From: Laetmonice hystrix
Lineage: Eukaryota
Length of the DNA stretch: 64,000 nucleotides
Direction: 5' to 3'
NCBI GenBank assembly: GCA_965235115.1
Contig: OZ249436.1
Location: forward strand, 27,654,001-27,718,000
Shown: positions 10,301-59,302 of the stretch, piece by piece
Numbering within the stretch: the stretch's first letter is position 1
Layout of the letters: each line of letters opens with the position of its first letter
The notes under the pieces: generated by a model
The model's input: the letters and a program-made list of their open reading frames with translations, nothing else
What the model was told of the DNA's origin: nothing
Database searches by the model: none
Position numbers and translations under genes: made by a program

Positions 10301-13220
10301 TTTCTGATTACTGCCTAGGGGCACCATGATAAATAAAAAAAATTAAAGCCTTGGCATCATGGCAAAGTATGCCTTCACCAACCATCACTTGACAAGTCAC
10401 AGTCTTGAATGAATTTAAGGACAGATGCACAGTTGAATGAAAAGGGATGGATCCATTGCATGTTTGGCTCCCTGACCAAGGGGTAGGTGTGTTCACCCAA
10501 AGGCACCCATTGTGGGGGGGGGGGGGGGGGATAGGGAACACAACGCCAGTGTATAGTGTATGTCACTCAGAATTCTTTAAACATTACTTCATTTCAGGGC
10601 AAGTTGCATCTGTAATGACTAAATGTTCTACATGGGATATTTCAGCTGTCCACTGAGGTGTTGTGTAAGAATGAGACGTCGAGTGAGGTTGGAGGTTTGG
10701 TCCACACCACAGCAGTGGGACAGAACGACACGTTACATTATACCTTCAGTACCCATGGAGTACCCTCAATACTTGTTACAAGAACAGACAACGAGGAAAC
10801 ACTCAGTGTAGATTGCGAGAAATTTTTCTCTCACAATGTCAACGATTCAAAACACAGCCTCGTCTTCAAAAAAGCTCACTACTCCTATGCCATTCTTTTC
10901 CAGCAGGTGAGTTGTATTTCAAGGCAAAGATTTATTGATGAGTAATAAAAGATAACAAGTGTCTCTGAATACCTTTTACATTTAATTCAAACTGGTCCAG
11001 TTTGAAATACAACACAAAATAAGCTTTGGTTTTATACTTTCAGTGTGCTTTAATTGTTTCAGCTGATAGAATATAATGACACCAATGATGTGGCCAATTT
11101 AGAAAAGGTCCCTCAAGACAACAGTACTGGATGGAATTTTTACGACCTGAGTAATGTGACCTGGATGGACATTGGAGAGGCAGGCGACCTTGACAACAAT
11201 GAGGTGGTGTTCAAAGTCAGTGATGAGTTTCAGGGTTTGTCCTTCAGGGACAATGGATCTCTGTCAATACAGGTAAGGAGAAAAATAAGTTGTATGCATC
11301 AGAATATATCATATATAACAATGTTAACTTACATTATTCTTGGACCTAAACTTGGTCCAGGCATAGTAAATCTTATATAATTTTTCTTAAATTCCTCCAT
11401 TTTTTTGATCCCAAACAATTTGATTGTAGGTAGTGATATTATTTTAATTACAATTTGAGGACTTGGTGTCAATCATATGACAACAATTTTATAGCAAATG
11501 CTAGATGCACAAATGGGTAAAGCCATCAGGCTTCCAATGAAACTGTTGCTGAGGACTTGTCACTCCTATAGCTGCAGGTGTTTGGTCACGAGGACCGGGC
11601 TACCAATCTACCACATCTAGAACACAATGCTAACATCACTCAGCTCAACCTCATCCTTGACAACATCAACACCAGCTTCAGCAACGCACGCTTTGCTGTC
11701 GAGATCGCCATGGTATCCACAGATCATGTTCCAGACAAGATGGCACTTAATGATGATGTTTACATTGACGATGAACACACCCCAGGAGTGTTTGAGGTGA
11801 GAGGGCTGGTGGGACACCACTCCATGTCATCAAGTTTATACCGGATTCATCACAGTGCTAGAACTGCCAAGGATGACCAATTCCTAGTGCCTGACACTGG
11901 AAAAGTTCCTCACACTCAGTAGCCCAGTAGCAAGTCCCCCGACTCTAACATAAGTTGAAACCTACCCACAATCCATGTTTAAGTACATGCATGTATATTA
12001 AAAATTCACATTAATTTCAGCTGATTGCACAGAATTTATTATTGTGTTTCAGATGATAGACTGGACTGCCAATGGACCAGCAAAGGAGAGATCTGGATAC
12101 TTCCAGTTCAAACCAGTTTGTTATACTGAACAGAAGAGGTACAGAATTATATTTCAAAATCTTCATTGCAGAAGTTGTATATCAGTCCTTAGATCGTCAG
12201 TACTCAGTTTACCCACGTCCGTTACCATGGGGACATTGCTGAGTCACATCAAAATCTATCAAGTATGCCTTGATGATACTTTGCGGCCAGTAATCAATGA
12301 CTTTACTATTATAAAGGAAATTTGAAGTATTTCTGTGTTTGATATAACATTAGTTTCTGCTATGGACAAATCTTGATAGGATACTAATGTTTTGTGTCTC
12401 CTTCAGGTCTCTAAATGTAGGGACTCGCGCCACTTACTATGCCCTTCAGCGTCCTAACCTGACTGAGGCAGCACAGACGACAAGTTTGGTTAATGCTTAT
12501 TTTGGTGACAAGTTGTACGAAGGCAAACTGTCCTTCACAATGACCAACATATCCTTTGGGCTCAGTCGGGACAAGTTCTATACAAACACATATTATACTG
12601 TTTGGTATGTATACATGTCTGAAGTCTCAATAATCTAATTTCTAATTTAAACATTGAGACATACATTGTACTATGTTTTTGTTTAAATTTTATATGAAGA
12701 GTAAAAGTTTGTGGAATTTGCAAATATGAAATATCTGCTTAATTTCTTCAGACGAACCTGCCACAGGCTAAAAGTAGGCCTAGTATAAATGTATACACAT
12801 TTTCGAGCTTACTCCCTATACTTGTAATTAGATTAATAAAAGTGTTTGTGTTTAACTTGTTTCTCAGATATTTCGTTCAACAACAAGAGTTGGTCTTACA
12901 GATAATAGTTCTTGAGATAGCACATCTTTAAAATTCCAAGTGTCACCGATGTCTTATCATATCTTGATGTTGAATGATCGTAATACCTAGTAACATAGGT
13001 CTGTGACAACATGAACTCTGCTTGTTCTAGGGTCGCGTCCATAGGATTTGGCATCCCGCCATCTGACAAGATCTCGACTATGATCATCATCATCCTGTCG
13101 GTGGGACTCGGTCTGCCCATCGTCCTTATTCTCTTCGGAGGTCTCGGGGTCTGTGTCAGGAGGAGGAAGAAAAAGTATGCTGCATATGAAGAAATCACTA
13201 GCGACCCTGTCATCAACTGA
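7380..13220 (+). CDS. GLMP: Glycosylated lysosomal membrane protein (NCU-G1/GLMP family), 7 coding exons, ~420 aa
   Basis: Exons 7380-7478, 10646-10906, 11063-11272, 11578-11796, 12053-12138, 12407-12604, 13031-13220; all GT-AG with matching phases (1263 nt). N-terminal signal peptide; AVGQNDTLHY, NGSLSIQV, IDDEHTPGVF and SGYFQFKPVCY match GLMP motifs; many N-glycosylation sequons; C-terminal TM helix, basic stop-transfer RRRKKK and YEEI (YxxPhi) lysosomal sorting motif. Confidence 0.93.
7608..7746. mobile_element. Foldback MITE, PIF/Harbinger-like (CTG TSD)
   Basis: TIR GGCCCGGTTTTTTGGTTGAGCTTGAG; almost the whole 139 bp is palindromic; CTG directly repeated on both flanks. Confidence 0.8.
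7912..8883. mobile_element. Non-autonomous DNA transposon with CAGG termini and 5-bp TSD (hAT5-like)
   Basis: Perfect 18-bp TIR CAGGCCTGTAAAAATCGC / GCGATTTTTACAGGCCTG; ATATT on both flanks; subterminal GGTTGTCC motifs at both ends. Confidence 0.8.
9234..9851. mobile_element. Non-autonomous DNA element with TCCTACTTTT subterminal repeats
   Basis: TIR AGGCCTTCCAGCAG / CTGCTGGAAGGCCT; many TCCTACTTTT copies near both ends; no clear TSD. Confidence 0.65.
9469..9644. mobile_element. Harbinger-like MITE nested in the 9234-9851 element
   Basis: TIR GGCCCGGTTTTTAGTT / AACTAAAAACCGGGGC, same terminal motif as the 7608 MITE; CWG flanks. Confidence 0.65.
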
Positions 13221-17704: not shown

Positions 17705-19077
17705 TATAGATTACAGCTAGGGACAAAGGTTTACATACACCTATAGATTACAGCTGGGGACAAAGGTTTACATACACCTATAGATTAAAGCTGGGGACAA
17801 AGGTTTACATACACCTATAGATTACAGCTGGGGACAAAGGTTTACATACACCTATAGATTACAGCTGGGGACAAAGGTTTACATACACCTATAGATTACA
17901 GCTAGGGACAAAGGTTTACATACACCTATAGATTACAGCTGGGGGCAAAGGTTTACATACACCTATAGATTACTGCTGGGGACAAAGGTTTACATACACC
18001 TATAGATTACAGCTGGGGACAAAGGTTTACATACACCTATAGATTACAGCTGGGGACAAAGGTTTACATACACCTATAGATTACAGCTAGGGACAAAGGT
18101 TTACATACACCTATAGATTAAAGCTGGGGACAAAGGTTTACATACACCTATAGATTACAGCTGGGGACAAAGGTTTACATACACCTATAGATTACAGCTG
18201 GGGACAAAGGTTTACATACACCTATAGATTACAGCTAGGGACAAAGGTTTACATACACCTATAGATTACAGCTAGGGACAAAGGTTTACATACACCTATA
18301 GATTACAGCTAGGGACAAAGGTTTACATACACCAATAGATTACAGCTAGGGACAAAGGTTTACATACACCTATAGATTACAGCTGGGGACAAAGGTTTAC
18401 ATATACCAATAGATTACAGCTGGGGACAAAGGTTTACATACACCTATAGATTACAGCTAGGGACAAAGGTTTACATACACCTATAGATTACAGCTAGGGA
18501 CAAAGGTTTACATACACCAATAGATTACAGCTAGGGACAAAGGTTTACATACACCTATAGATTACAGCTGGGGACAAAGGTTTACATACACCTATAGATT
18601 ACAGCTGGGGACAAAGGTTTACATACACCAATAGATTACAGCTAGGGACAAAGGTTTACATACACCTATAGATTACAGCTGGGGACAAAGGTTTACATAC
18701 ACCTATAGATTACAGCTGGGGACGAAGGTTTACATACACCTATAGATTACAGCTGGGGACAAAGGTTTACATACACCTATAGATTACAGCTAGGGACAAA
18801 GGTTTACATACACCTATAGATTACAGCTAGGGACAAAGGTTTACATACACCTATAGATTACAGCTAGGGACAAAGGTTTACATACACCTATAGATTACAG
18901 CTGGGGACAAAGGTTTACATACACCTATAGATTACAGCTAGGGACAAAGGTTTACATACACCTATAGATTACAGCTGGGGACAAAGGTTTACATACACCT
19001 ATAGATTACAGCTGGGGACGAAGGTTTACATACACCTATAGATTACAGCTGGGGACAAAGGTTTACATACACCTAGA
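17705..19077. repeat. 37-bp minisatellite, ~37 copies
   Basis: Unit CTATAGATTACAGCT(G/A)GGGACAAAGGTTTACATACAC, highly homogeneous, with no spacers. Confidence 0.97.
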
Positions 19078-19883: not shown

Positions 19884-20312
19884 TTAAGGACACCCTAAAA
19901 TAAATAGGCATAATAAAATGACATGAAATTGAAGGCAGCAGGTGGTGTAGGGCCAAGTGAAACGCATTTTCCATGACAGGAATTCTTCATTAAATTACAA
20001 CGAAAGAAAAAAGGCCAAAGAAGTCAAACTGTACGTATTTATTTCCGTACCGTATGCAATAAGTTGAATAATCTAAGTACATTGTTTTGTCCGTTGATGA
20101 ACTACCGCGCTCACTGTCTATGTCCGGCCTTCGACCTGTGCTTTTCCTGCATCCTCTAATCGTTGCCGAGATCCAGGCATTTAAATCTATTCAGTCAATC
20201 TCATTCCAAAGCAGTGGTATTTTCGTATATGGCAATCACTGGCAATGCTGCTGATGGTGATGCTGGCTTCGCAAGTTTCCCCGAGTCCTCTCAAGTCCTT
20301 CCTCTTTACAGG

Positions 20313-23300
20313 TTACACTTTACCTGACAAGCGTGAAGACCGCCTCAAATGTCCTGTTGCTCCTGCAAAGAAGAAGCAGCGTTGCAATAGACCTAAATAA
20401 GGGTGTACAATGTATAACATATTTCCACTTAAAACTCACTCCCTTGACCTATACATGACGTTTGTAATAATCTTCAATCACAAACGTAATTGGATCCAAG
20501 ATGGCGCAAGCCAATGTATAACTTACTGTAAAGGATGAAGATTCTCTACTGATAAACTGGAACATTTTATTTTTTTTATGAACATACATATTTATTATGT
20601 TAGATGTCAATCTAATTTTTCAGTTACCCCTTTACATGCCTTGAACATTTGTGAGAACTATATGGAAAGTTGCTGGATTAACATTTGCTATAAGTATTCT
20701 AGACCTTTGACACTGGGGATAATATACAGGCGGCCCTCTGGTTCCCTTGAAAACTGCCTAGAGGCACTTCATGAGATGCTTAATTCTATTCCATCGGGTA
20801 ATGATATTATGATGATTGGAGACTTTAACATTGATTTTGCTAAAAATAATAACAATTCTAGGAAACTTAAAGAATTAGCACGCGAGAGATCTCTGAAACA
20901 GTTGATTAAAACACCTACCAGAGGAACACATTATACAAGTACAACTATTGACCTAATATTCGTAAAGGCCGATCACATTGTCCAGAGTGGCACAATTCCC
21001 TGTGGATTAAGTGATCATAATATAATTTTTGTTATCAAAAAGAAAATACAACCTACACATACGAGTGCAACCTTTCAAGGACGAAGCTACAAACACTTGG
21101 ACATTCCTAACTTACAAGCACGTATATCAGCCTTGGACTGGTCACCTTTCTATGAATGCTGTGATCCTACACTTAGTTGGGATATTATGCTAGGTAATAT
21201 AATGTCCGTCACCGATCTGCTATGTCCCCTCAAAGAAATAAAGATAAAAAAGGTTAAACAACCGTGGATTAACAACCTTTTACTTGAACTAATGAATGAT
21301 AGAGATGCTGTTCTGAAGCGACATGAGCAGACAAAAGACTCGGCTGACTGGGACTTGTATAAAAGGCTGAGAAACGAGGCTAAGAGAGGAGTCCGTGAAG
21401 CTAAAGAAGAGTTCATAATTGACAATCTTGTGAAACACGAAGGTGACCACAAAAAGTTCTGGAAACAGATAAATGATCTATTTCCTCGCTCTGGTAAGAA
21501 CAATGCTACTTTCAGACTGATTGAGCCAAATGGCAATACTGAAGTTGATGAAAGTAAGACTGCTGATTATATCAACTCATTTTTTGTGAATATTGGTCCT
21601 AACCTTGCCCAGCACTTCAGAGAACCCTGGGATACGGATATGGTCAGGTCAAACCTAGAACTGCCAACTATGGTTACCACTGAAGAGGAGGTTAAGAAGC
21701 TAGTTAAAGAAATTAACATATACAAATCCTCTGCTATTAAGAACATTTCATCGAAAATTCTTAAACCTGCATTCCTAATCCTAATACCTCAACTCACACA
21801 CTTGTTCAATCTATGCCTTACACATGGATTATTTCCTGATAGCTGGAAGGTTGCTACAGTCATTCCACTACAAAAAGATGGTGATAAGTCGGATGTGGGA
21901 AACCTAAGGCCAATCTCGTTACTTCCTCTGCCAGGGAAGATGTTAGAAAGGGTAATCCATGCAAATTTAATGCTTTTTCTCACAGAAAATAACCTAATAT
22001 CTGAAAAGCAAGGTGGTTTTAGGCCTGGTTTTTCAACCACTAGAAAAATAGCGGACTTAACTGATGACATATACGAAGCTATGAATAATCAAGAAATTAC
22101 TGTGGCAGTCTTTATTGATTTTAAAAAAGCTTTTGATACGGTTGATCACGAAATTCTTCTCAGGAAACTAGACTTACTTGGTATTAGGAATATAAACCTT
22201 AACCTAATAACTAACTATCTATCCAACAGGAAACAACAGACCTTGGCAAATAATGTTATGTCAGATACTGCAAACATCACGTTTGGGGTCCCCCAAGGCT
22301 CTGTTCTCGGTCCGCTATTGTTTCTATTGTACGTGAATGATTTACCAGACTGTATTCAAAACGGACGTTCGCAATTATATGCTGATGACACAACTGTCTA
22401 CCAAAAACACAGTAATGTATATTGTGCGGTTCAGAGCCTTCAAGATGACCTTGACCGTTTAATGCATTGGTGCAACCTGAATAAATTAACGATCAATGTT
22501 AAAAAAACTAAAGCTATGATCTTCACTACTAAACAAAGAAAGAAAAGGCTTCCGCCAATCAATCTGACATTAGGCAATGAGCGACTCGCTATAGTAGACT
22601 CGTATAAGTACCTGGGACTTACTCTAGACAGCACACTTAATTTTGAAAACCATCTTAAAAATATGGTAAAAACCATAAGTCACAAACTATTTATGCTAAC
22701 TAGGCTACGTCGACTGTTAACTCAGGCTGCTGCCGAAAGAGTCTATAAAACAATGATTTTACCATACTTTGACTATGCAGACATCTTCTATGAGGCATGT
22801 TCACAAAACAAACTCGATAAGTTACAAAGGATCCAAAATCGGTCTCTTAGATGCATAGCTGGTGTCAACCAAAAACATCTTTCCACTGATGAATTGCATG
22901 AAAAGTTAAATCTCTGTAAGCTAATTACTAGAAGAAAACAGCATCTTGCGAACTTTATGTTTAAAAGATCATCGGACCCCCACTATATAGACAATAGAAA
23001 CCTAATAACAAGAGAACATAGGAAAAAGCTCATGGTAGTGACTAAACCTAATTTAGAAAAGTTCAAAGACTCCTTGGTGTATAAAGGCTCTAAACTTTGG
23101 AATAGCCTAAGTATGGAACACCAAGTATGTGCATCATATAAACTTTTTAAATCCAAAACAAAGAACTGTATTATAGATTGAAGGAATGTGTATGTTTGTT
23201 CCCTATATTAGCCCTATGAAGTTGACATGTAATTTATGTGTATCATGGCATTTCCCCCCCTGTACAGATGCTATAATCACCCACACATCTCATTATCATC

Positions 23301-23434
23301 TCACTCTTCTATCATACCTATGTAATAGATAGTATCGAGGATAAGGTATTCGGGAAACGCGTGACTATTGTAGGAGGTTTACCAGGAAACAGGCTTATAG
23401 CCTTGTGTATATCTTCTTCAATAAAGATCATCTT

Positions 23435-23467
<33 letters not shown>

Positions 23468-24981
23468 CATCAAGTGGAAGGCCTTTTAGCAATTTTAACT
23501 TTTTGCGAACTCAAAGATGAGACTTTCCAGGATTGTCCATCATAACTTTGCATTTTCAGGCATCCCATACATGTACTTATACTGTATGTAATACGCACCT
23601 CACTGTCATCTGTAGGCATGAACACAAATATACATTGACTTACATAATCTTAAATTGACATCAAATTGCTTGCTTCTCCAAAGTGTCACAAAACATAAGC
23701 TAAGTTACCTACAAAAATGCGAAAGTTCCATAAAGTAGAAGTTCTGTACATGTAAAATAGTATTTCTTTATCTACATATCTTCAAATCTAAGGGGAGGGG
23801 GAAATCTCTTACTTGTTTTGGTAAGACTGTCATCAGAGGAATTTATTTGGCACTTTGCAGATTGTCGATTGGTTGTCTGTCGCTTGGTTCCTTTCTTCGA
23901 CACAGTGCTCTTTTTAGTGAGAACTTTTGGAGATGATACCACAGTTTTAGCATTATGTTTTGGATACAACGTTTTCTTTGGGGCAGAATTTCTTGGCCCT
24001 TTCTCTTCATTTGCTGATTCTTCTGACTCCTGAGCAGCAAAACACAGACAATTTGTGGGAAATGCGACTGGTAAAGGTTAATCCTGATCAAATCTATAGA
24101 GGTTATGTGGTGACGTCATTTGGAGGAAAATAGCATGGGCTTCTGTTTACAGTTATTTTAAATCGATTCTCTACAGCTCTTTACCTTCTCTTTCTCCTTG
24201 GGAGCACTTCTTTTCCTTTCAACTCTCCCTCTGGTTTTATGATCTGGAATGATTCATAATTAAGAAGTTAGAACCATGTAGAAATTACGTTCTCATGGAA
24301 ATCTGATCTAAAATACATTGTAGGTGTGTATATCATTATATGGCACATACCTAATTTTACTAATACTAATTTTTGCACCAATGAATGGTGGCGTGTTTAA
24401 TACCTTTTGTTCATTTAATTCATTTGTTCAACTGTGTATGGAAAGGTGGACCTTACGTCACATCCTTTTGTTGAATTGTTACCATGAACGATGTTGTCAA
24501 AAACTGTGACGTACCTACTTGAAAGACCTACGTCATAATTCGTCGTCATATTTAACAAGAGAACATAGGAAAAAGCTCATGGTAGTGACTAAACCTAATT
24601 TAGAAAAGTTCAAAGACTCCTTGGTGTATAAAGGCTCTAAACTTTGGAATAGCCTAAGTATGGAACACCAAGTATGTGCATCATATAAACTTTTTAAATC
24701 CAAAACAAAGAACTGTATTATAGATTGAAGGAATGTGTATGTTTGTTCCCTATATTAGCCCTATGAAGTTGACATGTAATTTATGTGTATCATGGCATTT
24801 CCCCCCCTGTACAGATGCTATAATCACCCACACATCTCATTATCATCTCACTCTTCTATCATACCTATGTAATAGATAGTATCGAGGATAAGGTATTCGG
24901 GAAACGCGTGACTATTGTAGGAGGTTTACCAGGAAACAGGCTTATAGCCTTGTGTATATCTTCTTCAATAAAGATCATCTT

Positions 24982-25014
<33 letters not shown>

Positions 25015-28000
25015 CATCAAGTGGAAGGCCTTTTAGCAATTTTAACTTTTTGCGAACTCAAAGATGAGACTTTCCAGGATTGTCCATCATAACTTTGCAT
25101 TTTCAGGCATCCCATACATGTACTTATACTGTATGTAATACGCACCTCACTGTCATCTGTAGGCATGAACACAAATATACATTGACTTACATAATCTTAA
25201 ATTGACATCAAATTGCTTGCTTCTCCAAAGTGTCACAAAACATAAGCTAAGTTACCTACAAAAATGCGAAAGTTCCATAAAGTAGAAGTTCTGTACATGT
25301 AAAATAGTATTTCTTTATCTACATATCTTCAAATCTAAGGGGAGGGGGAAATCTCTTACTTGTTTTGGTAAGACTGTCATCAGAGGAATTTATTTGGCAC
25401 TTTGCAGATTGTCGATTGGTTGTCTGTCGCTTGGTTCCTTTCTTCGACACAGTGCTCTTTTTAGTGAGAACTTTTGGAGATGATACCACAGTTTTAGCAT
25501 TATGTTTTGGATACAACGTTTTCTTTGGGGCAGAATTTCTTGGCCCTTTCTCTTCATTTGCTGATTCTTCTGACTCCTGAGCAGCAAAACACAGACAATT
25601 TGTGGGAAATGCGACTGGTAAAGGTTAATCCTGATCAAATCTATAGAGGTTATGTGGTGACGTCATTTGGAGGAAAATAGCATGGGCTTCTGTTTACAGT
25701 TATTTTAAATCGATTCTCTACAGCTCTTTACCTTCTCTTTCTCCTTGGGAGCACTTCTTTTCCTTTCAACTCTCCCTCTGGTTTTATGATCTGGAATGAT
25801 TCATAATTAAGAAGTTAGAACCATGTAGAAATTACGTTCTCATGGAAATCTGATCTAAAATACATTGTAGGTGTGTATATCATTATATGGCACATACCTA
25901 ATTTTACTAATACTAATTTTTGCACCAATGAATGGTGGCGTGTTTAATACCTTTTGTTCATTTAATTCATTTGTTCAACTGTGTATGGAAAGGTGGACCT
26001 TACGTCACATCCTTTTGTTGAATTGTTACCATGAACGATGTTGTCAAAAACTGTGACGTACCTACTTGAAAGACCTACGTCATAATTCGTCGTCATATTT
26101 ATGTTACATAACGTAATCGCTTCCCTACCCAGCCTCACATAAAATAGTCCCCAATACAGCGCATTTTTACTAAGTTAGAAACAATTAATCCAACCCAAAT
26201 AAATAATTAACTCTCTTTATATTACCATTAATTAATTTAGGAAAGAGCGCAGAGATTCACATCAGCACTCGTGCTTCCCACTCGTGCTGATATTACTCCG
26301 CACATGCCACCTCGTCTGATACACAATCCTGTATCACACACTCGGTCGTTCCCGTGTCAGGGATGTGCCCCAAAAAAATGAGTGTTGGTCAGTGAGAAAT
26401 TAATATGTACCGGTACACACATTTTATCAGATGAGAGGCCTGATAAAAATTCCTGCCGGGCAGCACTTGAACCTTTTTAGTTTTGTCGGTGCCGGGCAGG
26501 CCCGCCCAGCGCCGCCCAGCGTGGGCACATCCCTGCTGTGTATTTCCGCACATCTGACCACAGTTCTATGATCTGACAGTACATGTATAAGCTAACAGTG
26601 CGAGCCCAAAGTGTCTCAAACTACTAGTTACCTACTACAATTAAAAGGCACCAATTTTCGAACATCAAACTGGGGAGTGGTCTTCAATCTTGAGTCACAC
26701 AACCAAGAAATATGGTAACAAGTTAATGTATTTACTTGACAATACCTTTAGGTTTCAATGGTCCTGCCTGTCCAATAAACCACATTGTTCTACCGTTGTG
26801 ATCCACCATGTTGTTCATACCATCTTTATAGTAACACTGAAGCCAGTCCAGGAATGATGCAAAGCCTTCCTTGTCATCGCGTGGGTCATACACGTGTCCT
26901 CTTCCACCATCTGTCAACATGTAAAATCAGCTGACACGCCGGGTAGGCATACTTTGTCAGGTTGAAGACGTATACATGTACAGTATAATTACAGTATAAC
27001 TCTTACGTAGACGGCTATATATCCTGCTATAAATTAAGTTCTAAAATAAAAATAAATTGTTGGTGGGAAATACAAACTCTAAAACCCCCTGCTGGATAGC
27101 AAACTGGATGTACAAGTTTTACTCAATCAGTGCCAGGACTTCCATTGGGAGATCATGACAGAGTTGTAGGATGCCAGTGTTTAAACTGGATGTACAAGTT
27201 TTACTCAATCAGTGCCAGGACTTCCATTGGGAGATCATGACAGAGTTGTAGGATGCCAGTGTTTAAACTGGATGTACAAGTTTTACTCAATCAGTGCCAG
27301 GACTTCCATTGGGAGATCATGACAGAGTTCTAGGATGCCAGTGTTTTTAAACAGGATGTACAAGTTTTACTTAATCAGTGCCAGGACTTCCATTGGGAGA
27401 TCATGACAGAGTTGTAGGATGCCAGTGTTTAGGCAAAAAAGAAATCCCGGTTTCTGGTCCGCGCGCACGTCACTTCAAATGCCGCGCATCAGTGCTTTTT
27501 TTTTTCTTCCCCTCACCTTGGATGACTGTGAATTGCGCTGCCACCTAGTGGTAAGGCCAAAAAAAAAAATAGATTCGTTTCTTGTCCCCGCGCGCGTCAC
27601 CTAAAAACCCCCGCGTCAAGTCTTTTTTTTTCAAATCCGACTGCTTCATATGGTGGGCAGTGTAGCGCTGGGACAGAACGTTGCAACGGTTCTTTGGCGT
27701 TGGCGCCTTTCTGTTAGTCTTATTGCTTTTTATGCGAGTTTTACACATTCTAAAACATTGAACATCATTGCATTAGTCTTTTCTTCAAGATTTATGTACC
27801 CAACAGCAATTGCATTCGAAGAATCGGCCGTTGTCTAGTTGCATCCAAAAAAAAAAAAGAAAGATGAAAAAAAAAGAAGCCGCGTCACCGCACCATTTTT
27901 TTTATATGAAAGGACAAGAAACGAAACTTTTTTTTTTTTGGCCTAAGGCTTGAAACTAACCATTGTTGTAATGGATATTTCAGTAACATTGCAACGGAAG

Positions 28001-31000
28001 TGTGTTGTATGCAAAGCGATGACAACAAAGGTCATGGTCCTTGTTTATGAGTTCATTTTACATGATATCGTATGAGGCCCGCTCTCACCCAAAAAAAAAT
28101 CTTTAACAAAAAAAACAAAACGCGTCACCGCACCACTTTTGAAATGTTCTTCGGACCAGAAACCGGGAATTTCTTTTTTTGGCCTTAAACTTGATGTACA
28201 AGTTTTACTCAATCAGTGCCAGGACCTCCATTGGGAGATCATGACAGAGTTGTAGGAGGTCAGGGCTTGAATAGGATATACAGACTGTACTCAATCAGAC
28301 TTCCATTTGGAAGTCATGAGTAGCATGTCTGAGTTTGAACAGCATGCAGGTTTTTCCTACTCAGTACCAGGACTTCCATTGGGAGGTCATGAGTTGTAGC
28401 ATGTCTGGGTTTGAACAGCATGCAGGTTTTTCCTACTCAGTACCAGGACTTCCATTGGGAGGTCATGAGTTTTAGCATGTCTGGGTTTGAACAGCATGCA
28501 GGTTTTTCATACTCAGTACCAGGACTTCCCTTGCCATTGGGAGGTCATGAGTTGTAGCATGTCTGAGTTTGAACAGCATGCAGGTTTTTCCTACTCAGTA
28601 CCAGGACTTCCATTGGAAGGTCATGAGTTGTAGCATGTCTGGGTTCGAACAGCATGCAGGTTTTTCCTACTCAGTACCAGGACTTCCATTGGGAGGTTAT
28701 GAGTTGTAGGATGTCTGGGTTTGAACAGCATGCAGGTTTTCCCTACTCAGTACCAGGACTTCCCTTGCCATTGGGAGGTCATGAGTTGTAGCATGTCTGG
28801 GTTTGAACAGCATGCAGGTTTTTCCTAGTCAGTACCAGGACTTCCATTGGGAGGTCATGAGTTGAAGCATGTCTGGGTTTGAACAGCATGCAGGTTTTCC
28901 CTACTCAGTACCAGGACTTCCCTTGCCATTGGGAGGTCATGAGTTGTAGCATGTCTGGGTTTGAACAGCATGCAGGTTTTTCCTACTCAGTACCAGGACT
29001 TCCATTGCCATTGGGAGGTCATGAGTTGTAGCATGTCTGAGTTTGAACAGCATGCAGATTTTTCCTACTCAGTACCAGGACTTCCATTGGGAGGTCATGA
29101 GTTGTAGCATGTCTGGGTTTGAACAGCATGCAGGTTTTTCCTAGTCAGTACCAGGACTTCCATTGGGAGGTCATGAGTTGTAGCATGTCTGGGTTTGAAC
29201 AGCATGCAGGTTTTCCCTACTCAGTACCAGGACTTCCCTTGCCATTGGGAGGTCATGAGTTGTAGCATGTCTGGGTTTGAACAGCATGCAGGTTTTTCCT
29301 ACTCAGTACCAGGACTTCCATTGCCATTGGGAGGTTATGAGTTGTAGCATGTCTGAGTTTGAACAGCATGCAGATTTTTCCTACTCAGTACCAGGACTTC
29401 CATTGGGAGGTCATGAGTTGTAGCATGTCTGGGTTTGATCAGCATGCAGGTTTGACTTTGACTCACTCAGTGCCAGGACTTCCATTGGGACATCATGACA
29501 GAGTTGTAGGATGTTTGGATTTGAACAGCATGCAGGTTTTTCCTACTCAGTACCAGGACTTCCCTTGCCATTGGGAGGTCATGAGTTGTAGCATGTCTGA
29601 GTTTGAACAGCATGCAGGTTTTTCCTACTCAGTACCAGGACTTCCATTGGGAGGTCATAAGTTGTAGCATGTCTGGGTTTGAACAGCATGCAGGTTTTTC
29701 CTACTCAGTACCAGGACTTCCATTGGGAGGTCATGAGTTGTAGCATGTCTGGGTTTGAACAGCATGCAGGTTTTTCCTTCTCAGTACCAGGACTTCCATT
29801 GGGAGGTCATGAGTTGTAGCATGTCTGAGTTTGAACAGCATGCAGGTTTTTCCTACTCAGTACCAGGACTTCCATTGGGAGGTCATGAGTTGTAGCATGT
29901 CTGGGTTTGAACAACATGCAGGTTTTTCCTACTCAGTACTAGGACTTCCATTGGGAGGTCATGAGTTGTAGCATGTCTGGGTTTGAACAGCATGCAGGTT
30001 TTTCCTACTCAGTACCAGGACTTCCCTTGGCATGACAGAGTTGTAGGATGTCAGAGTTTGAACAGGATGTACAGTTCTTACTCACTCAGTGCCAGGACTT
30101 CCATTGGGAGATTATGACAGAGTTGTAGGATGTCAGTGTTTGAACAGGATGTACAGTTCTTACTCACTCAGTGCCAGGACCTCCAATGGGAGATCATGAC
30201 AGGGTTGTAGGATGCCAGTGTTTGAAGACGATGTACAGTTCTTACTCACTCAGTGCCAGGACCTCCAATGGGAGATCATGACAGGGTTGTAGGATGCCAG
30301 TGTTTGAAGAGGATGTACAGTTCTTACTCACTCAGTGCCAGGACTTCCATTGGGAGATCATGACAGAGTTGTATGATGTCAGTGTTTGAAGAGGATGTAC
30401 AGTTCTTACTCACTCAGTGCCAGGACTTCCATTGGGAGATCATGACAGAGTTGTAGGATGTCAGTGTTTGAAGAGGATGTACAGTTCTTACTCACTCAGT
30501 GCCAGGACTTCCATTGGGAGATCATGACAAAGTTGTAAGATGTCGGGTTTCTCTGACTTCACGCCTGCCTTCTGTGCAGCATGCACTGGTTGCAGCACTG
30601 ACTGGGCACTCACAAACGGGGGTATGTTCAACCTACAACATATTGAGAAAAGTCCTTTAATAAATTATTCATTTGGGGTCTGCTGCATCCTAATATCGAA
30701 ATGGCCTTTTTTAGAAAAAAAAAAGTGACAACTGTTTGTTGTTATTTTCAAATCTTTGACTTGATACTCACAAAGTGTCAGGCCTTAGTTCGAGAACATC
30801 TGATCAAGGAACAATAACCTTGAACATACCTGTAAAGTATTTCAGCTCGCAGATAGTTGCCAACTCCATTGAAGTACTTCTGGTCAAGCAAAACCTCACA
30901 TATTGGTTTCTTAAATACCACCCGTTCTACATCATTGAGTATGTTTTCCCTGTAACAGATTGTGATATCCAGGATGATATAAAATCAAGCTTTGACGATT

Positions 31001-32203
31001 TGATTGTTGATGTTACAACAGAAAGTTTGACTTTAGGCCACTTAAAATTAATAAATTGTTTTACATGGCCGGCCGCCTCGATTTTTTTTTATATTTTATA
31101 TTTTTCAAAAAGTCCGTTTTTTTCATCCCCAAAACCGTCTCCCACAGTTCTGTCAGGGTGTTACAGTTGAAGGGACCCTCAAGGTATAGAAGGGCTGTAC
31201 AAAATGTTGAGATATTGAGAAATTAAAAGTATTTTTCCAGTGATCTCTGGTGATCTCTGCTGTCCTTCTTGTCGAGGCAAAATATAAAATATAAAATATA
31301 AAATGCCCTACTCACCAACATTTCAGAAGTTGGAGTCATGTAAAACAATTTATTAATTTTAAGTGGCCTTATTTGGCATTGAAAAATTTATTTATAACTG
31401 CACTGGACCTGTCTGCCCTTCCTGCAGTGCTGACCAACATGCTCTGAATTATGAGACAATCTAACTGGTTTCAGACAATAGGTGCACAATTTTTGAATGA
31501 CACTGCCAGTTTTATAAGCATTGTATTCATGTTACTGGCAATGTTTACTTTCAAAGTTGCCACTTCCAAATAAGAACTGTGTCTTCATCATTTTTGATGA
31601 GGTTCAATGATATGTATTTTGAGTATTACCATAGACCTAGTCCTAGAGTAGATCTACTCTAGGTCTATGGTATTACCAACTTGGACGGCAATAAGTACCG
31701 TACCTGAAGAGATCATATTCGAGTATAACACAAGGTCCTCGGTTTTTACCCCATTCGTCTGTCAACTCCCACCGACCAAAACGGCGGTAGTCGTTAAAAC
31801 TCAAACAATAATCGTCTGTATCCGTGAAGAAATTCAGATGGCAGTGTTTGTCCATGTCGTCCTTGTGCACAAACTTGAATTTTCCCGACATGCCAAAACG
31901 AAAGAGAATTTCAATTTTCTTCCCCTGATATTCCCCATTTTTAGACTTTTGTTTTTGAATGTCATTGGCTTTCATTTTCACCCCGGAAGGATCTGTCGCC
32001 TCCGTGGGATGCACCGCTGTCAGGGTCAGCTTGACTTCCTTGCCGCGGGTTGTAGCGGAGATTTTATAGGCGGGCTCCTCCCATGGGATGTCGGGGTTCT
32101 TTGTGGAGACGGCGGATTTCAGAACTTTACCGGTGAAGATCCTATTCTCACAAACTCTGTTAATGAAAAGGCCTGCAACGTGAAGTTCGGGTCCTTCTGG
32201 CAT
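20313..32203 (-). CDS. NEIL1: Endonuclease VIII-like 1 DNA glycosylase (Fpg/Nei family)
   Basis: Starts MPEGPELH (catalytic Pro2/Glu3); RGKE, FRFGMSG, RRFGRW, RGPCV, LLDQKYFNGVGNYLRAEILYR (H2TH) and DHNGRTMWF match NEIL1. Exons (minus): 32203-31704, 30949-30830, 30632-30496, 26910-26746, 25790-25732, 25576-25360, [duplicated 24243-24185, 24029-23813], 20362-20313; all GT-AG and phase-consistent (415 aa without, 507 aa with the duplicate pair). The last exon is inferred; an unspliced alternative reads to a stop at 25319. Confidence 0.92.
20578..23181 (+). CDS. LINE ORF2 (partial APE endonuclease plus reverse transcriptase), CR1/L2 group
   Basis: 867-aa ORF with GIIYRRP, IGDFNID, TTIDLIF and SDHN (APE), then LRPISLL, KQGGFRPG, FIDFKKAFDTVDH, GVPQGSVLGP and YADDT (RT); the APE N-terminus is missing. 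Confidence 0.92.
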   Translation: MNIHIYYVRCQSNFSVTPLHALNICENYMESCWINICYKYSRPLTLGIIYRRPSGSLENCLEALHEMLNSIPSGNDIMMIGDFNIDFAKNNNNSRKLKELARERSLKQLIKTPTRGTHYTSTTIDLIFVKADHIVQSGTIPCGLSDHNIIFVIKKKIQPTHTSATFQGRSYKHLDIPNLQARISALDWSPFYECCDPTLSWDIMLGNIMSVTDLLCPLKEIKIKKVKQPWINNLLLELMNDRDAVLKRHEQTKDSADWDLYKRLRNEAKRGVREAKEEFIIDNLVKHEGDHKKFWKQINDLFPRSGKNNATFRLIEPNGNTEVDESKTADYINSFFVNIGPNLAQHFREPWDTDMVRSNLELPTMVTTEEEVKKLVKEINIYKSSAIKNISSKILKPAFLILIPQLTHLFNLCLTHGLFPDSWKVATVIPLQKDGDKSDVGNLRPISLLPLPGKMLERVIHANLMLFLTENNLISEKQGGFRPGFSTTRKIADLTDDIYEAMNNQEITVAVFIDFKKAFDTVDHEILLRKLDLLGIRNINLNLITNYLSNRKQQTLANNVMSDTANITFGVPQGSVLGPLLFLLYVNDLPDCIQNGRSQLYADDTTVYQKHSNVYCAVQSLQDDLDRLMHWCNLNKLTINVKKTKAMIFTTKQRKKRLPPINLTLGNERLAIVDSYKYLGLTLDSTLNFENHLKNMVKTISHKLFMLTRLRRLLTQAAAERVYKTMILPYFDYADIFYEACSQNKLDKLQRIQNRSLRCIAGVNQKHLSTDELHEKLNLCKLITRRKQHLANFMFKRSSDPHYIDNRNLITREHRKKLMVVTKPNLEKFKDSLVYKGSKLWNSLSMEHQVCASYKLFKSKTKNCIID
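20600..23467 (+). mobile_element. 5'-truncated non-LTR retrotransposon with poly(A) tail, antisense within the last NEIL1 intron
   Basis: Uninterrupted ORF2, ~255-nt 3' UTR with AATAAA near 23419, and A29 at 23439-23467. The 5' boundary is approximate and no TSD was found. Confidence 0.88.
23006..26101. repeat. 1547-bp direct tandem duplication (23006-24552 / 24553-26099)
   Basis: Identical ORF translations at a 1547-nt offset; both copies carry an A29 tail; junction at 24553 with TA microhomology. Confidence 0.95.
24553..25014 (+). mobile_element. Duplicated 3' fragment of the LINE (end of ORF2, 3' UTR, A29)
   Basis: TREHRKKL...KNCIID is identical to the C-terminus of the 20578 ORF; part of the tandem duplication. 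Confidence 0.9.
27432..28184. mobile_element. Harbinger-like MITE (TTA TSD) inserted into the satellite
   Basis: TIR GGC(C)AAAAAAGAAAT(T)CCCGGTTTCTGGTCCG; TTA duplicated, splitting the satellite motif GTGT-TTA-AAC. Confidence 0.8.
27555..27943. mobile_element. Related Harbinger-like MITE (TAA TSD) nested in the previous element
   Basis: TIR GGCCAAAAAAAAAAA..TTCGTTTCTTGTCC / GGACAAGAAACGAA..TTTTTTTTTTTGGCC, with TAA on both flanks. Confidence 0.8.
31036..31368. mobile_element. Harbinger-like MITE (TTA TSD) in NEIL1 intron 1
   Basis: Perfect 32-bp TIR GGCCACTTAAAATTAATAAATTGTTTTACATG; TTA on both flanks. Confidence 0.85.
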
Positions 32204-34795: not shown

Positions 34796-37750
34796 TTATT
34801 GATGAAGGTAGCGCATGCTTGTAGGGTTCGGTTTGTCGGCCCACTTGTAGTCTATTTTAGCTGGGTGGTCCTTGTGGTACCTGTCCAATGCGTTCTTAAA
34901 ACCGTTGACTGTGGATTTTGATACTATTTCATCAGGTAGTTCGTTCCACCAATTTGCTACTCTTTGGGTGAAAAAGTTTTGTCTGATATTTGTCCTATTT
35001 AATGACTTGTTTAACTTGTAGTTGTGTCCCCTTAGTCCAGGAGTTGTTGTGCTCAGGTTGTTGGTCAGTAAGTCTGTGTCCATAAATCCATGTAACATTT
35101 TGTAAACATTTATTAAATCGCCACGTATCCTTCTGTATGTCAAGGTTGGAATGTTCAACTCTTTAAGTCTATTTTCATAGCTCAGATCCTTAAGTGCTGG
35201 TATCATTTTGGTTGCCCGCCTTTGGATGTTTTCCACTTCCTCAATTAATTTCCATAAACTTGGAGTCCATACAGGTGCGGCATACTCTAGTATGGGTCTG
35301 ATGATGGATTTATATAGTAATTTAAATGTGTGTTTGTCCAGGTAATCGAAGGATCTCCAGATCATGCCGGTTATGCTATTCGCTTTTTTGGTAATGAGGT
35401 GGATATGGTTTTCAAAACTGAGGTTCTTGTCGATTTGTACTCCGAGGTCCCTTTCTACGTCTGATAATGTGAGTTCAATAAGTGAGTCATCTGACCTCAT
35501 TTTGTATATAAATTCGGGTTGACCTTTATATATTCTGAGCACTACGCATTTGTTTGGGTGAAAACGCAGCTGCCATTTCTTCTCCCATTCTTCCAGATTC
35601 CTGATGTCTTGCTGTATTCTTTGGCATTGGTCTATGGTTTTGGCGCTTCCATACAATTTTGAGTCGTCTGCGAATAGTTTAATATTTGATGCTGCTATTT
35701 GAGGCATATCGTTGATGAAGATTGCGAATAGAACGGGGCCCATCACACTGCCCTGTGGGATTCCACTTTTCATGGCCTTCCATTGAGATGTTGCCCCATC
35801 CACTAGTGTTCTTTGTTTTCGCTTTGTAAGGAAGGTCTTTAGCCACATGAGGAGTTCGCCATTTATACCGTAGCTTCTTAATTTAGATATTAGTCTCATA
35901 TGTGGCACTGAGTCAAAAGCCTTCATGAAGTCGAGCATTATGACGTCGACCGGCATATTGTTGTCTATGGATTGGGTTACAAAATCCAGGTATTCTAGTA
36001 GTTGGGTTACGGTAGATCGCCCCGACATAAATCCATGTTGGTGCTTGGAGTATAGGTTATTACTTATCATGTGGTGATTGACACTGGCTCTGATTATTTT
36101 TTCTAAAATTTTGCAACATACTGATGTGAGACTTACTGGCCGATAGTTTTGCGCCAATCTCCTCGACCCTTTCTTGTGGATGGGTGTTATGTTGGCCACT
36201 CTCCAGTCCTCCGGTAGTTCGCCAGATTTCAAAGATTCATTGAAGATATGGGTTAATGGTGCTGCCAGCACTGAAGCGGTTTCCTTAAGGACCCTGGGGT
36301 GGAGGTCGTCCGGTCCCGCACTCTTGTATTGATTTAGTTCCTTTAATAATTTTTCTACCTCCTCCTTTGTCACCGGCACTCTGTTTAGTGGCTCATGGAA
36401 AGGTATTGTGGGTAGTTTCGGTATGACCTCAGTGTCTTCAGTGGTGAAGGTTGATGCAAAAAAGTCATTCATCAGCTCTGCTTTACCTACTCCATCTGTT
36501 ATTGTTTCTTCCTTTTCATTTTCCAGGTCTGCTATGCCTTGTCTTGTGTTTAGTTTATTGTTCACATATTTCCAGAAGCTCTTGGGGTCTACCTTTGCCT
36601 GTCTGGCGACTTGTTTTTCCAGATTTTTTTTTGCTTTTCTGGTCATCCCCTTGAGTTGATTTCTTATTTTGGCATATTGTAAGTAGTCTTTACCTAGTTT
36701 TGTATCCAGGTATCTTTTCCATAATTTTTCTTTCCTTCTTATGTGGCGTCTAGTTGCCCCCGTCATCCAAGCCGGCTTACGCCTGAGGTCGGGGCCACGG
36801 CTGACCGGTATATTCCTTCGCACTGACTCCTGTACCCTATTTTTGAAGATGTTCCAACATTCTGCCGCTGGTTTCCCTTGTAGAAGACTAATCCAGTCAA
36901 TCCCAAGCTCCTTGATTATTGCGTCATAGTTCCCTTTATGGTATTGGAAAGACTCCCTCCTTGGACCCTGCACTGCAGTATTGATGTTGAAATCGAAGGT
37001 TATACATATATGGTCGCTTTTTCCTAATGGCTGAAGTGGCTTGATGTTTCCTACCCTCTGGTCTTCGTTGGTTAGTACGAGGTCTAGGGTGTGTGGTTCC
37101 TGGTTACACCTGTACCTAGTTGGGAAGCTTATCATCTGCTGAAGGAAGGCATCATTTGTGGCTTCTATAAAGTCTGCCTCAGCCCTTGTGTTTCCTACAG
37201 GCGTGTCTTGACTTAACCAGTCTATTCCTGGATAATTAAAGTCCCCTAGTACCAATTGGAATGCCGATTTCTCCTTCTGTAGGTTACTGATCATTTTGTT
37301 TATGTTACCTGTGTTATCAGCTTGTGAGTTTGGGCTCCTATACATGCATATTACGTTTAGGGGCACATTTGAGATTGTTTTTAACTGGATGCCTAGTGCC
37401 TCTTTAGTGTCCTTGTGGTTTGACAATTTTAATTCACTGGCCTTTAGATTCTGGTTTACTAGTATAGCCACCCCTCTTGTGTCGTTTTCCTTGATATTAG
37501 TGAACAGGTCATATCCTGGTATTGCTATTTCATTGGCTTGTAGCTCAAATCTGGAGTTTTTTGGCTTTACTTCAGTTAGTGCAATAATGTCTGGTTGATG
37601 CTCCTCCACCATCACTGCTAATTCCCCTCTTTTATTTAGGACACCGTCTGCGTTTGTGTATAATATCGTTAATTTGTCCTTTTTTCTCTGACCTGTGCTT
37701 GCAGAGTTTGCTACTCTCTGCGTTTCATCCTCACTATCCTCAAGTTCCAT
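34796..37750 (-). CDS. CR1 LINE ORF2: APE endonuclease plus reverse transcriptase (984 aa)
   Basis: YTNADG, DIIALTE, MYRSP, LGDFNYP, LDLVLT and KSDH (APE); YRPVSLTS, QHGFMSGRS, LDFMKAFDSVPH, GIPQGSVMGP and FADDSK (RT); CR1-type C-terminus RRIRGDLI, LRGHNYKL, FFTQRVANWWNELP. Confidence 0.96.
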   Translation of the reverse strand: MELEDSEDETQRVANSASTGQRKKDKLTILYTNADGVLNKRGELAVMVEEHQPDIIALTEVKPKNSRFELQANEIAIPGYDLFTNIKENDTRGVAILVNQNLKASELKLSNHKDTKEALGIQLKTISNVPLNVICMYRSPNSQADNTGNINKMISNLQKEKSAFQLVLGDFNYPGIDWLSQDTPVGNTRAEADFIEATNDAFLQQMISFPTRYRCNQEPHTLDLVLTNEDQRVGNIKPLQPLGKSDHICITFDFNINTAVQGPRRESFQYHKGNYDAIIKELGIDWISLLQGKPAAECWNIFKNRVQESVRRNIPVSRGPDLRRKPAWMTGATRRHIRRKEKLWKRYLDTKLGKDYLQYAKIRNQLKGMTRKAKKNLEKQVARQAKVDPKSFWKYVNNKLNTRQGIADLENEKEETITDGVGKAELMNDFFASTFTTEDTEVIPKLPTIPFHEPLNRVPVTKEEVEKLLKELNQYKSAGPDDLHPRVLKETASVLAAPLTHIFNESLKSGELPEDWRVANITPIHKKGSRRLAQNYRPVSLTSVCCKILEKIIRASVNHHMISNNLYSKHQHGFMSGRSTVTQLLEYLDFVTQSIDNNMPVDVIMLDFMKAFDSVPHMRLISKLRSYGINGELLMWLKTFLTKRKQRTLVDGATSQWKAMKSGIPQGSVMGPVLFAIFINDMPQIAASNIKLFADDSKLYGSAKTIDQCQRIQQDIRNLEEWEKKWQLRFHPNKCVVLRIYKGQPEFIYKMRSDDSLIELTLSDVERDLGVQIDKNLSFENHIHLITKKANSITGMIWRSFDYLDKHTFKLLYKSIIRPILEYAAPVWTPSLWKLIEEVENIQRRATKMIPALKDLSYENRLKELNIPTLTYRRIRGDLINVYKMLHGFMDTDLLTNNLSTTTPGLRGHNYKLNKSLNRTNIRQNFFTQRVANWWNELPDEIVSKSTVNGFKNALDRYHKDHPAKIDYKWADKPNPTSMRYLHQ

Positions 37751-38955
37751 GGGGGGCCTCTCACCTTGTGTACATACAGGCCTCCCTCGGTTTCGTTTTT
37801 TGCTTTAGCCTCGTCCACTAGTTTTTTGACCTCAATCCGTTCTTCCCTAGTGAGGTCATGGCTGACACTGATATTCTTAAATATTCTATCAGCATCTTGG
37901 AGTTTGTGAAGCCTTTGCATGATTTTAGTCTTGTCATCGGTGCTTTCCATAGTAACTTTAGTTGGTCTGTCCCTGCCTTCTTGCCTTTTGCCCAGTCGGG
38001 CTATGTTTGTAATTTTCAAGTTAGTTAGTTCAAGCACTTCATTAGTTAGGCGTTGTATCAGATCATGGTCATATTTTCTCCTGTCTTCCACTCTTTCTTC
38101 CTCACTCTCCTTTAGTCTGTAGATTATAATATTTTGCTCTCTGACTTCTTTATCCTTTACTTCAATCTGATTTCTTTTCATTAGTTGGTCCACTTTATCT
38201 ACTACGACATTTGTCAACTGTTTGGTCTGGTCTGAGATATTCCTGGCTGCTATTTGGGCCCAGCTAGTTGGGGGGGTGTCTGCCTCTTGTTCTGGGTCTA
38301 TTATTATCGCGGGTTTATCGAGTTCTTTCATGATCTCTTTTGCCGTCTGCTTCGCTGCCACGGCACAAGATTCTTTGATGCTATCCTTACCTTCCTGGAT
38401 TATATCCCCCAGCTGTCTAGCTACGCCTTCTAGCATCTTATCCATGCGCTTCTCAAGGGCTCCTACGTGTGAGATTTTACCCCCTGTCTTAGATGTACAT
38501 ACTGCCTCCATCGCGATGGGGTCACATACTGTGCAAAACCAGTGTAGGTTGGGCCACATGTCAAGCGCTTCCATCATCTCCAACGGTACATTCTGGCATG
38601 AGCCACAACACCATTTAGTACACCTCTCACACTGGATCACACCGGTAGTGTCTTTCCCACACCTCTCGCACTCATACAGTTCCTCACCTGGATCACCGGG
38701 GTCTCTTGAATCATCACCTCTTACCTCTTCTTCGATCAGGGACTGGCTGGCAGACTTGGTGGCCGTGGATTTCTTCCCCCTCCTACCTTTCTTACCAGCC
38801 GCCAGTGGCGGCAGATCCGTTGCGGCCTTTGCTCTATCCGTGACCTTGACCTTCCTCGTGGGCTCACTTGCGGTAGTTGGTAGCTCACTTCTGTCACCAC
38901 TGCCAATTCCCAAAAGCTTGTCTCGCAGGGGAGAGAGCTTCGTTTTGAGTGACAT
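37711..38955 (-). CDS. CR1 LINE ORF1: PHD finger, coiled coil and RRM/CTD-like region (414 aa)
   Basis: CERC..CERCTKWCCGSC..WFCTVC PHD-like finger; NIIIYRLKE, RLGKR..RP and SHDLTREER motifs typical of LINE ORF1; overlaps the ORF2 start by 40 nt. Confidence 0.9.
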   Translation of the reverse strand: MSLKTKLSPLRDKLLGIGSGDRSELPTTASEPTRKVKVTDRAKAATDLPPLAAGKKGRRGKKSTATKSASQSLIEEEVRGDDSRDPGDPGEELYECERCGKDTTGVIQCERCTKWCCGSCQNVPLEMMEALDMWPNLHWFCTVCDPIAMEAVCTSKTGGKISHVGALEKRMDKMLEGVARQLGDIIQEGKDSIKESCAVAAKQTAKEIMKELDKPAIIIDPEQEADTPPTSWAQIAARNISDQTKQLTNVVVDKVDQLMKRNQIEVKDKEVREQNIIIYRLKESEEERVEDRRKYDHDLIQRLTNEVLELTNLKITNIARLGKRQEGRDRPTKVTMESTDDKTKIMQRLHKLQDADRIFKNISVSHDLTREERIEVKKLVDEAKAKNETEGGLYVHKVRGPPWNLRIVRMKRRE

Positions 38956-58410: not shown

Positions 58411-59302
58411 CCTTGTACCAACCTCTGGGCATCTTCGAACTGTTCCCTTGTACCAACATCTGGGCATCTTCGAACTGTTCCCTTGTACCAACCTCTTGGC
58501 AATATCTTCGAACTGTTCCCTTGTACCAACATCTGGGCATCTTCGAACTGTTCCCTTGTACCAACCTCTTGGCAATATCTTCGAACTGTTCCCTTGTACC
58601 AACCTCTTGGCAATATCTTCGAACTGTTCCCTTGTACCAACCTCTTGGCAATATCTTCGAACTGTTCCCTTGTACCAACCTCTTGGCAATATCTTCGAAC
58701 TGTTCCCTTGTACCAACCTCTTGGCAATATCTTCGAACTGTTCCCTTGTACCAACATCTGGGCATCTTCGAACTGTTCCCTTGTACCAACCTCTTGGCAA
58801 TATCTTCGAACTGTTCCCTTGTACCAACCTCTTGGCAATATCTTCGAACTGTTCCCTTGTACCAACCTCTTGGCAATATCTTCGAACTGTTCCCTTGTAC
58901 CAACCTCTTGGCAATATCTTCGAACTGTTCCCTTGTACCAACCTCTTGGTAATATCTTCGAACTGTTCCCTTGTACCAACCTCTTGGCAATATCTTCGAA
59001 CTGTTCCCTTGTACCAACCTCTTGGCAATATCTTCGAACTGTTCCCTTGTACCAACCTCTTGGCAATATCTTCGAACTGTTCCCTTGTACCAACCTCTTG
59101 GCAATATCTTCGAACTGTTCCCTTGTACCAACCTCTTGGCAATATCTTCGAACTGTTCCCTTGTACCAACCTCTTGGCAATATCTTCGAACTGTTCCCTT
59201 GTACCAACCTCTTGGCAATATCTTCGAACTGTTCCCTTGTACTAACCTCTGGGCATCTTCGAACTGTTCCCTTGTACTAACCTCTTGGCAATATCTTCGA
59301 AC
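58411..59302. repeat. 38-bp (35-bp variant) minisatellite, ~24 copies
   Basis: Unit CCTTGTACCAACCTCTTGGCAATATCTTCGAACTGTTC; variant CCTTGTACCAACATCTGGGCATCTTCGAACTGTTC. Confidence 0.97.

Follow-up and report, generated by a model that had tools for sequence, protein, structure and literature searches.

Comparing a 64,000-nucleotide (nt) stretch of the Laetmonice hystrix genome (GCA_965235115.1, contig OZ249436.1, positions 27,654,001 to 27,718,000, forward strand), hereafter called the window, with the contigs of four sequencing runs from one sample, we found that NEIL1, a predicted DNA glycosylase gene on the minus strand of the window, contains a direct tandem duplication of two coding exons, exons 5 and 6, which together encode 92 amino acids (aa) of its basic C-terminal tail. 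We propose that this is a recent, microhomology-mediated duplication on one haplotype, that it is likely near-neutral, and that the duplicated allele mostly gives a message with a single module; the probability that we assign to this reading as a whole is about 0.55. Its parts differ in strength. That the tandem duplication is real, and organised as assembled or nearly so, can be held with high confidence, and the duplication is likely both recent and heterozygous. Its near-neutrality is likely because the RNA contig that was recovered has a single module and because the doubled part is a predicted disordered tail outside the catalytic core.

The two copies of the repeated unit (23006-24554 and 24553-26101 of the window) are identical over 1549 nt with no mismatches, have a period of 1547 and overlap by 2 nt (TA) at their junction; an exact match of this length is far beyond chance. 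Each copy contains the 3′ end of a long interspersed nuclear element (LINE), whose A-tail measures 29 nt in both, and NEIL1 exons 5 and 6, which have intact AG/GT sites in both copies. The assembly therefore contains whole exons arranged head-to-tail with their splice sites, i.e., a tandem exon duplication. The module that is composed of exons 5 and 6 is 276 nt long, is divisible by three and is symmetric (phase 1-1). Gene models with one and two modules encode 415 and 507 aa, respectively, each with one terminal stop, and the three partial-inclusion forms that we tested are shifted in frame and reach a stop at residue 406-424. The new intron between the modules would consist of 345 nt of the old intron 6, 462 nt of the antisense LINE end and 309 nt of the old intron 4. 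These results agree with a first-pass annotation of the window, which had described an identical 1547-bp tandem repeat with a TA-only junction, exons 5 and 6 with the same phases, a symmetric module of 276 nt and a lengthening of the protein from 415 to 507 aa.

The sequencing data comprised the Logan contigs of four runs, which are graph-simplified by SPAdes-like rules (10.1101/2024.07.30.605881). Three of the runs (X1-X3) behave as DNA, while X4 was taken as RNA from its spliced joints. The contigs were aligned to positions 24500-27080, which include one unit, the junction and the right flank, and the copy-number figures that are given here use the per-contig depths of the two alleles at one place; allele rows at or beyond position 26000 that were mixed with high-copy repeats were excluded from the allele ratios. 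A second allele was visible inside the unit in all three of the DNA runs. The window's allele was the deeper one at all seven usable allele bubbles, with ratios above 1.5 throughout (2.43, 2.43 and 2.33 in X1, 2.64 in X2, which had one of three bubbles shown, and 2.28, 1.69 and 1.60 in X3) and a geometric mean of 2.16, these seven ratios not being mutually independent. The excess depth of the window's allele was present in the unit and absent in the flank. The pooled depth of the shared unit contigs relative to the flank was 1.83, the predicted values being 1.06-1.25 for one window copy, 1.69-1.88 for two and 2.32-2.50 for three. The best reading of these depths is that the window's haplotype carries two copies and the other haplotype one. 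The duplication is therefore likely to be real and heterozygous, as the allele ratio is close to 2:1 and the unit-to-flank ratio fits three copies against two, which strengthens the earlier suggestion that it might be polymorphic.

The first-pass annotation named an assembly artefact, in which a single-copy segment was written twice by the assembler, as the main alternative. Such a false duplication would explain the perfect identity of the copies, including both A29 runs, and would be in line with the location of both breakpoints in multicopy repeats, with the lack of a contig across the junction and with the result for X3, the weakest of the three runs (unit/flank 1.23, allele ratio 1.81). 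However, if the second copy were false, the allele ratio should be 1 and the unit-to-flank ratio 1.06-1.25, compared with the observed 1.6-2.6 at all seven bubbles and 1.83 in the pooled data, and we consider this explanation to be very improbable. It is also conceivable that the extra copy is real but not as assembled, for example that there are three copies, that a copy lies elsewhere or that a tandem of two alleles arose by unequal crossing-over and was polished to identity. The allele ratios of 2.4-2.6 in two of the three runs, an estimate of 3.3 against flank depth in one run, the unbridged junction and the left limit of the extra depth, which lies in the LINE outside the tested span, would all suit these variants. 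Conversely, two copies agree more closely than three with the pooled value of 1.83, the indels that separate the alleles in addition to substitutions would be unlikely to be erased by an assembler, and the window is free of any N and contains long minisatellite arrays without gaps. Altogether, we regard such an arrangement as improbable.

The transcript data came from X4, in which a single 327-nt RNA contig with a depth of 287 extended from the last 27 nt of exon 5 (25732-25759) through the whole of exon 6 and 83 nt into exon 7 (20280-20362). This contig had no differences from the window, carried the window's allele at the four exon-6 marker sites, 25501, 25524, 25538 and 25561, and confirmed both the exon 5-6 and the exon 6-7 joints; NEIL1 is transcribed, and its exon 7 is confirmed. 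The doubled 507-aa product of the first-pass annotation fared less well than the duplication itself, as no exon 6-to-5 joint was found among the listed RNA contigs of X4, the one RNA run, and the contig ran unbroken through exons 5, 6 and 7. In a simulated graph (k=31) in which single and doubled messages were mixed 1:1, the result was a 276-nt contig that ended exactly at the end of exon 6; the observed contig continues past this end into exon 7, which weighs against an exon 6-to-5 joint. According to our calculations, with full inclusion and equal output of both alleles the depth of the link would be lower than that of its neighbours by a factor of 2.5; a factor of four would be reached only below approximately 57% inclusion. 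Graph pruning has a cut-off of about 4-fold, which disfavours constitutive doubling and leaves a minority isoform possible. We infer that the 507-aa form is a minority at most, and a doubled protein, although possible, is mildly disfavoured. Provided that the duplication is real, mostly-single splicing is the outcome that we would rather expect, and mostly-doubled splicing is the less expected one. The three skipping routes that could produce a single-module message (exon 4 to 5B, 5A to 6B and 6A to 7) would yield an identical message sequence.

A heterozygous duplication with both modules in most transcripts would give a 507-aa NEIL1 with a 201-aa tail; on this view, the link between the modules was lost in contig simplification, or the RNA came from duplication-free material. 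This explanation draws on the four intact splice sites and the preserved frame, on the normal length of the new intron, which has a native donor and acceptor, and on the two Patella NEIL1 tails of 201 and 204 aa with internal repeats; the allele of the RNA contig is also the one to be expected if the duplicated allele was more abundant. A human in-frame tandem duplication was reported to be spliced with both of its copies (PMC11563810). On the other hand, the RNA contig is unbroken at the end of exon 6 and no back-joint is listed, the link under full inclusion would remain below the pruning cut-off, and the runs are filed as one sample. We consider mostly-doubled splicing to be a credible possibility, albeit one that is distinctly on the weaker side. 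Mutually exclusive use of the two modules was examined through two structural bars to joint inclusion, a very short intron and a frame clash. Neither was found here, as the intron measures 1116 nt and joint inclusion keeps the frame. Only tentatively can it be said that a newborn, identical module is mostly spliced once and that the duplicate was silent from birth without sequence divergence.

X4 contigs covered neither exon 4 nor the beginning of exon 5, which, because a record filter was applied, is no evidence of absence. With only 27 nt of exon 5 included, the X4 contig begins exactly where a branch from exon 5 to exon 7 would cut it, given that exons 6 and 7 begin with the same three bases. 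Such a branch would also end the contig 30 nt into exon 7, whereas the contig runs 83 nt into it. The start of the contig in exon 5 could reflect allele-specific skipping of exon 6 or an unresolved bubble at a single-nucleotide polymorphism.

Several points weigh against the reading of a real, heterozygous duplication that is mostly spliced once. The junction at 24553 was bridged by a contig in none of the three DNA runs (32 of the 880 pieces listed), and the LINE contig by itself explains all of the depth of the first bin at the junction. The junction offers only 28 specific 31-mers and lies between a LINE family at about 12 times one-copy depth and a repeat at thousands-fold depth; a link there, with an expected depth of approximately 0.08 relative to the adjacent LINE contig, would likely be pruned. 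Run by run, the estimates range between 1.9 and 3.3 copies, and summed contig depth is not equal to copy number. All four runs come from one sample and one study, the sample possibly being the source of the assembly, and graph-simplified contigs lose minor forms. The argument against constitutive doubling also relies on the approximate value of the pruning cut-off. Moreover, the proposed reading offers no reason why an identical module should be skipped, and the human case of PMC11563810 makes inclusion of both copies the default expectation.

The age of the duplication can be judged by comparing the copies with the alleles. While the copies of the unit have no differences in 1549 nt (95% upper bound 0.19%), the alleles differ at a minimum of 15 substitutions in 1077 nt (1.39%, a lower bound) and by indels as well. 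The event would therefore be at least about seven times younger than the split of the alleles, barring gene conversion, and the ‘very recent’ origin in the first-pass annotation is borne out by this contrast. On the same comparison, the duplication is a copy of one haplotype and not a joining of two. The LINE would have been inserted first; a 1547-bp segment that extends from inside the LINE to the high-copy repeat of intron 4 would then have been copied within one haplotype and joined at 2 nt, likely by a microhomology-mediated template switch or by end-joining, and the duplicated allele would since have mostly yielded the 415-aa message. Three other mechanisms were rejected. In the case of LINE 3′ transduction or a second LINE insertion, no A-run was found at 26101 after the carried flank, and the copy of the flank is in place; both LINE 3′ ends also share the same five substitutions and one 1-nt gap relative to the majority contig, which argues against either event. 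In the case of non-allelic homologous recombination, the breakpoints share 2 nt only and lie in unrelated repeats.

The proximal breakpoint is located inside the LINE reading frame (RVT_1, E-value 4.2e-36), which is open to 23181, and the distal one in a repeat stretch whose bins have summed contig depths of approximately 1,000 to 39,000 in X1-X3. A short inverted repeat with 6-bp arms and a 1-nt loop starts at the distal breakpoint (26090-26120); it was assessed without a control and could have stalled a replication fork. In X1 only, a joint that omits 95 nt across the distal breakpoint (26039-26135) was present at a depth of 27.4, which is approximately one-copy, with a side of 28 nt; possible sources are a deletion on the other haplotype and a copy of a repeat that lies elsewhere. 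At 25008-25025, a contig starts 17 letters before 25025 in all three DNA runs, which hints that the other haplotype differs at the LINE A-tail, having either an empty site or a shorter tail.

Judging by its domains and relatives, the gene is NEIL1, and glycosylase/lyase activity is predicted for its product. The Fpg/Nei N-terminal domain was found in exon 1 (Fapy_DNA_glyco, PF01149, E-value 5.7e-13) and the whole Neil1-DNA_bind profile in exon 4 (PF09292, E-value 1.5e-20), while the exon-2 fragment alone gave an H2TH match (PF06831, E-value 3.5e-5) with 24.1 bits compared to a cut-off of 34.7. Pro2, Glu3 and Lys55 are present in the predicted protein, the N-terminal Pro2-Glu3 pair and a conserved Lys being what we take to be the hallmark residues of NEIL1 DNA glycosylases. 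An exon-1 search found 61 relatives among 263 candidates, the named matches being ‘endonuclease 8-like 1’. The best named relative was the NEIL1 of Lingula (58% in the exon-1 search), the core having 59% identity over 308 aligned positions, and this points to a lophotrochozoan-like invertebrate as the source. The R[RS]SxR motif of exon 7 is common to the ends of 24 of the 61 homologs. A cryptic last exon inside the unit (acceptor at approximately 25156/23609), which would place copy B behind the stop, was rejected as the main form, as exon 6 is spliced in the RNA to the exon that starts at 20362. Pfam matches to CENP_C_N and Gp53-like_C on the exon-6 frame were below the cut-off and were taken as composition noise.

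The doubled module is rich in basic residues (25 K+R and 11 D+E in 92 aa), and its charge and hydropathy place it, unlike the core, on the disordered side of the boundary (hydropathy 0.315 compared to a boundary of 0.468); with doubling, the predicted net charge of the basic tail would go from +22 to +37. The tail would be 109 aa long with one module and 201 aa long with two. Among the 46 of 61 homologs that were measured (the 15 without the anchor motif were left out), tail length ranged from 26 to 204 aa with a median of 112.5, and two tails reached 201 aa or more. Internal repeats above 40 shuffles were found in seven of the 46 tails, compared with about 1.1 expected by chance; these tails (P0005, P0007, P0022, P0026, P0034, P0041 and P0045, which include two Patella species) have periods of 9-50 residues. 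The 92-aa module itself had no match at E≤1 among the 61 homologs, and an exon-6 search for longer relatives, which was a weak search, returned none at E≤0.01 among 30 candidates. Three of the four exon-6 differences between the alleles change an amino acid. Taken together, the tail looks weakly constrained, and other lineages seem to have undergone internal duplications of it earlier. The C-terminal segment of human NEIL1 was described as disordered; excision does not depend on it, whereas the binding of partners and efficient repair do (PMC3733129, PMC9266487). Like NEIL1 in these accounts of the Fpg/Nei (H2TH) superfamily, the predicted protein has a basic, presumably disordered tail after the DNA-binding domain; unlike the human tail, its 92-aa module has no sequence match to homologs, for which reason the human partner-binding sites (residues 312-349) are not mappable by sequence. 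A similar function of the module may thus be suggested by analogy only.

Tandem exon duplication was reported in 7-17% of metazoan genes, where it is generally tied to mutually exclusive splicing (PMC3342872). The NEIL1 case resembles those described in that review in having whole exons, head-to-tail, with their own splice sites and in one gene, but those cases are old and diverged and concern single exons, whereas the NEIL1 copies are identical, occur on one haplotype and form a module of two exons that preserves the frame. In flies, 1,415 segregating tandem duplications were described in Drosophila yakuba and 975 in D. simulans (PMC4069613); like them, the NEIL1 duplication is polymorphic and local, and their breakpoints, too, are often in repeats and often unassembled from short reads, although these are populations of another animal group and a single individual was studied here. 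The human duplication mentioned above concerns exons 10-12 of AFF2, of which both copies are spliced in (PMC11563810). It is likewise an identical multi-exon block in direct tandem that keeps the frame and would lengthen the protein. However, the doubled transcript of AFF2 was demonstrated, whereas none was seen for NEIL1 in the one RNA run, and the doubled part of NEIL1 lies outside the catalytic core. Literature searches that paired NEIL1 with exon duplication, or that were directed at the splicing of duplicated exons, found no papers in the collection that was searched.

The variant is ordinary standing variation of a well-known kind, and a single polymorphism in a tolerant tail leaves the general view unchanged. 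Its interest is that tandem exon duplications are frequent and that most studies of them deal with copies that are already diverged, while in the NEIL1 case the copies have no differences and markers inside exon 6 tell the two alleles of the heterozygote apart, which makes it a clean test case for splicing once versus twice. Splicing of both modules would give a natural NEIL1 whose basic tail is nearly doubled, of a length within the range of other animals; splicing of one would make the duplicate a clean example of harmlessness from birth. Should the duplicate indeed have been silent from birth, it would show how tandem exon duplicates survive their first generations, and such duplicates may later yield the internal repeats that are seen in the NEIL1 tails of other animals.

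Table 1. Features of NEIL1, the duplicated unit and the adjoining repeats, in window coordinates.
Feature	Position	Strand	Basis or remark
NEIL1 exon 1, 500 coding nt, Fpg/Nei N-terminal domain	31704..32203	-	Pfam, homologs, model
NEIL1 exon 2, 120 nt, part of H2TH	30830..30949	-	Below-cut-off Pfam match, model
NEIL1 exon 3, 137 nt, 3′ end seeds minisatellite	30496..30632	-	Predicted boundaries
NEIL1 exon 4, 165 nt, Neil1 DNA-binding domain	26746..26910	-	Pfam, model; donor predicted
High-copy repeat stretch in intron 4, contains distal breakpoint 26101	25979..26587 (bin edges)		Depth
Unit copy A, transcribed first	24553..26101		Window allele at about twice the depth of the other allele
Exon 5 copy A, 59 nt, phase 1 to 0	25732..25790	-	Spliced to exon 6 in the RNA contig
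Exon 6 copy A, 217 nt, phase 0 to 1	25360..25576	-	RNA contig, A and B indistinguishable
New intron between the modules, 1116 nt	24244..25359	-	Splicing predicted only
Duplicated LINE 3′ end, 462 nt with A29	24553..25014	+	Identity of the copies
Duplication junction, 2-nt TA microhomology	24553..24554		Bridged by no contig
Unit copy B (period 1547 bp), transcribed second	23006..24554		Identical to 24553-26101
Exon 5 copy B, 59 nt, phase 1 to 0	24185..24243	-	Repeat identity, model
Exon 6 copy B, 217 nt, phase 0 to 1	23813..24029	-	Repeat identity, model
5′-truncated LINE, endonuclease and reverse transcriptase, A29 tail	20620..23467 (5′ limit approximate)	+	Antisense in the last NEIL1 intron
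Exon 7, coding part to stop	20313..20362	-	Loose end of the RNA contig maps here

Other repeats were observed in and around the gene. The 155-nt intron between exons 5 and 6 contains a short element (25631-25717) with a summed depth of 7,600-12,500 in the DNA runs. Intron 3 (26911-30550, minus strand) is largely composed of arrays with periods of 76/82 bp, which fill 2529 of 3585 bp. The larger of these arrays starts in the 3′ end of exon 3, has six extra copies of the donor (30413-30085, 29466) and has an in-frame stop directly after the first donor. An array with donor copies corresponds to the ‘mirage’ type that was described in amphioxus (PMC3087553). Just upstream of NEIL1, a second LINE-like element (34796-38958, minus strand) was identified by eye; it has two long open frames of 415 aa and 1002 aa from stop to stop. 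Further minisatellites are located at 17705-19075 (37 bp x 37), 58411-59306 (38 bp x 24) and 2465-2701 (43 bp x 5.5).

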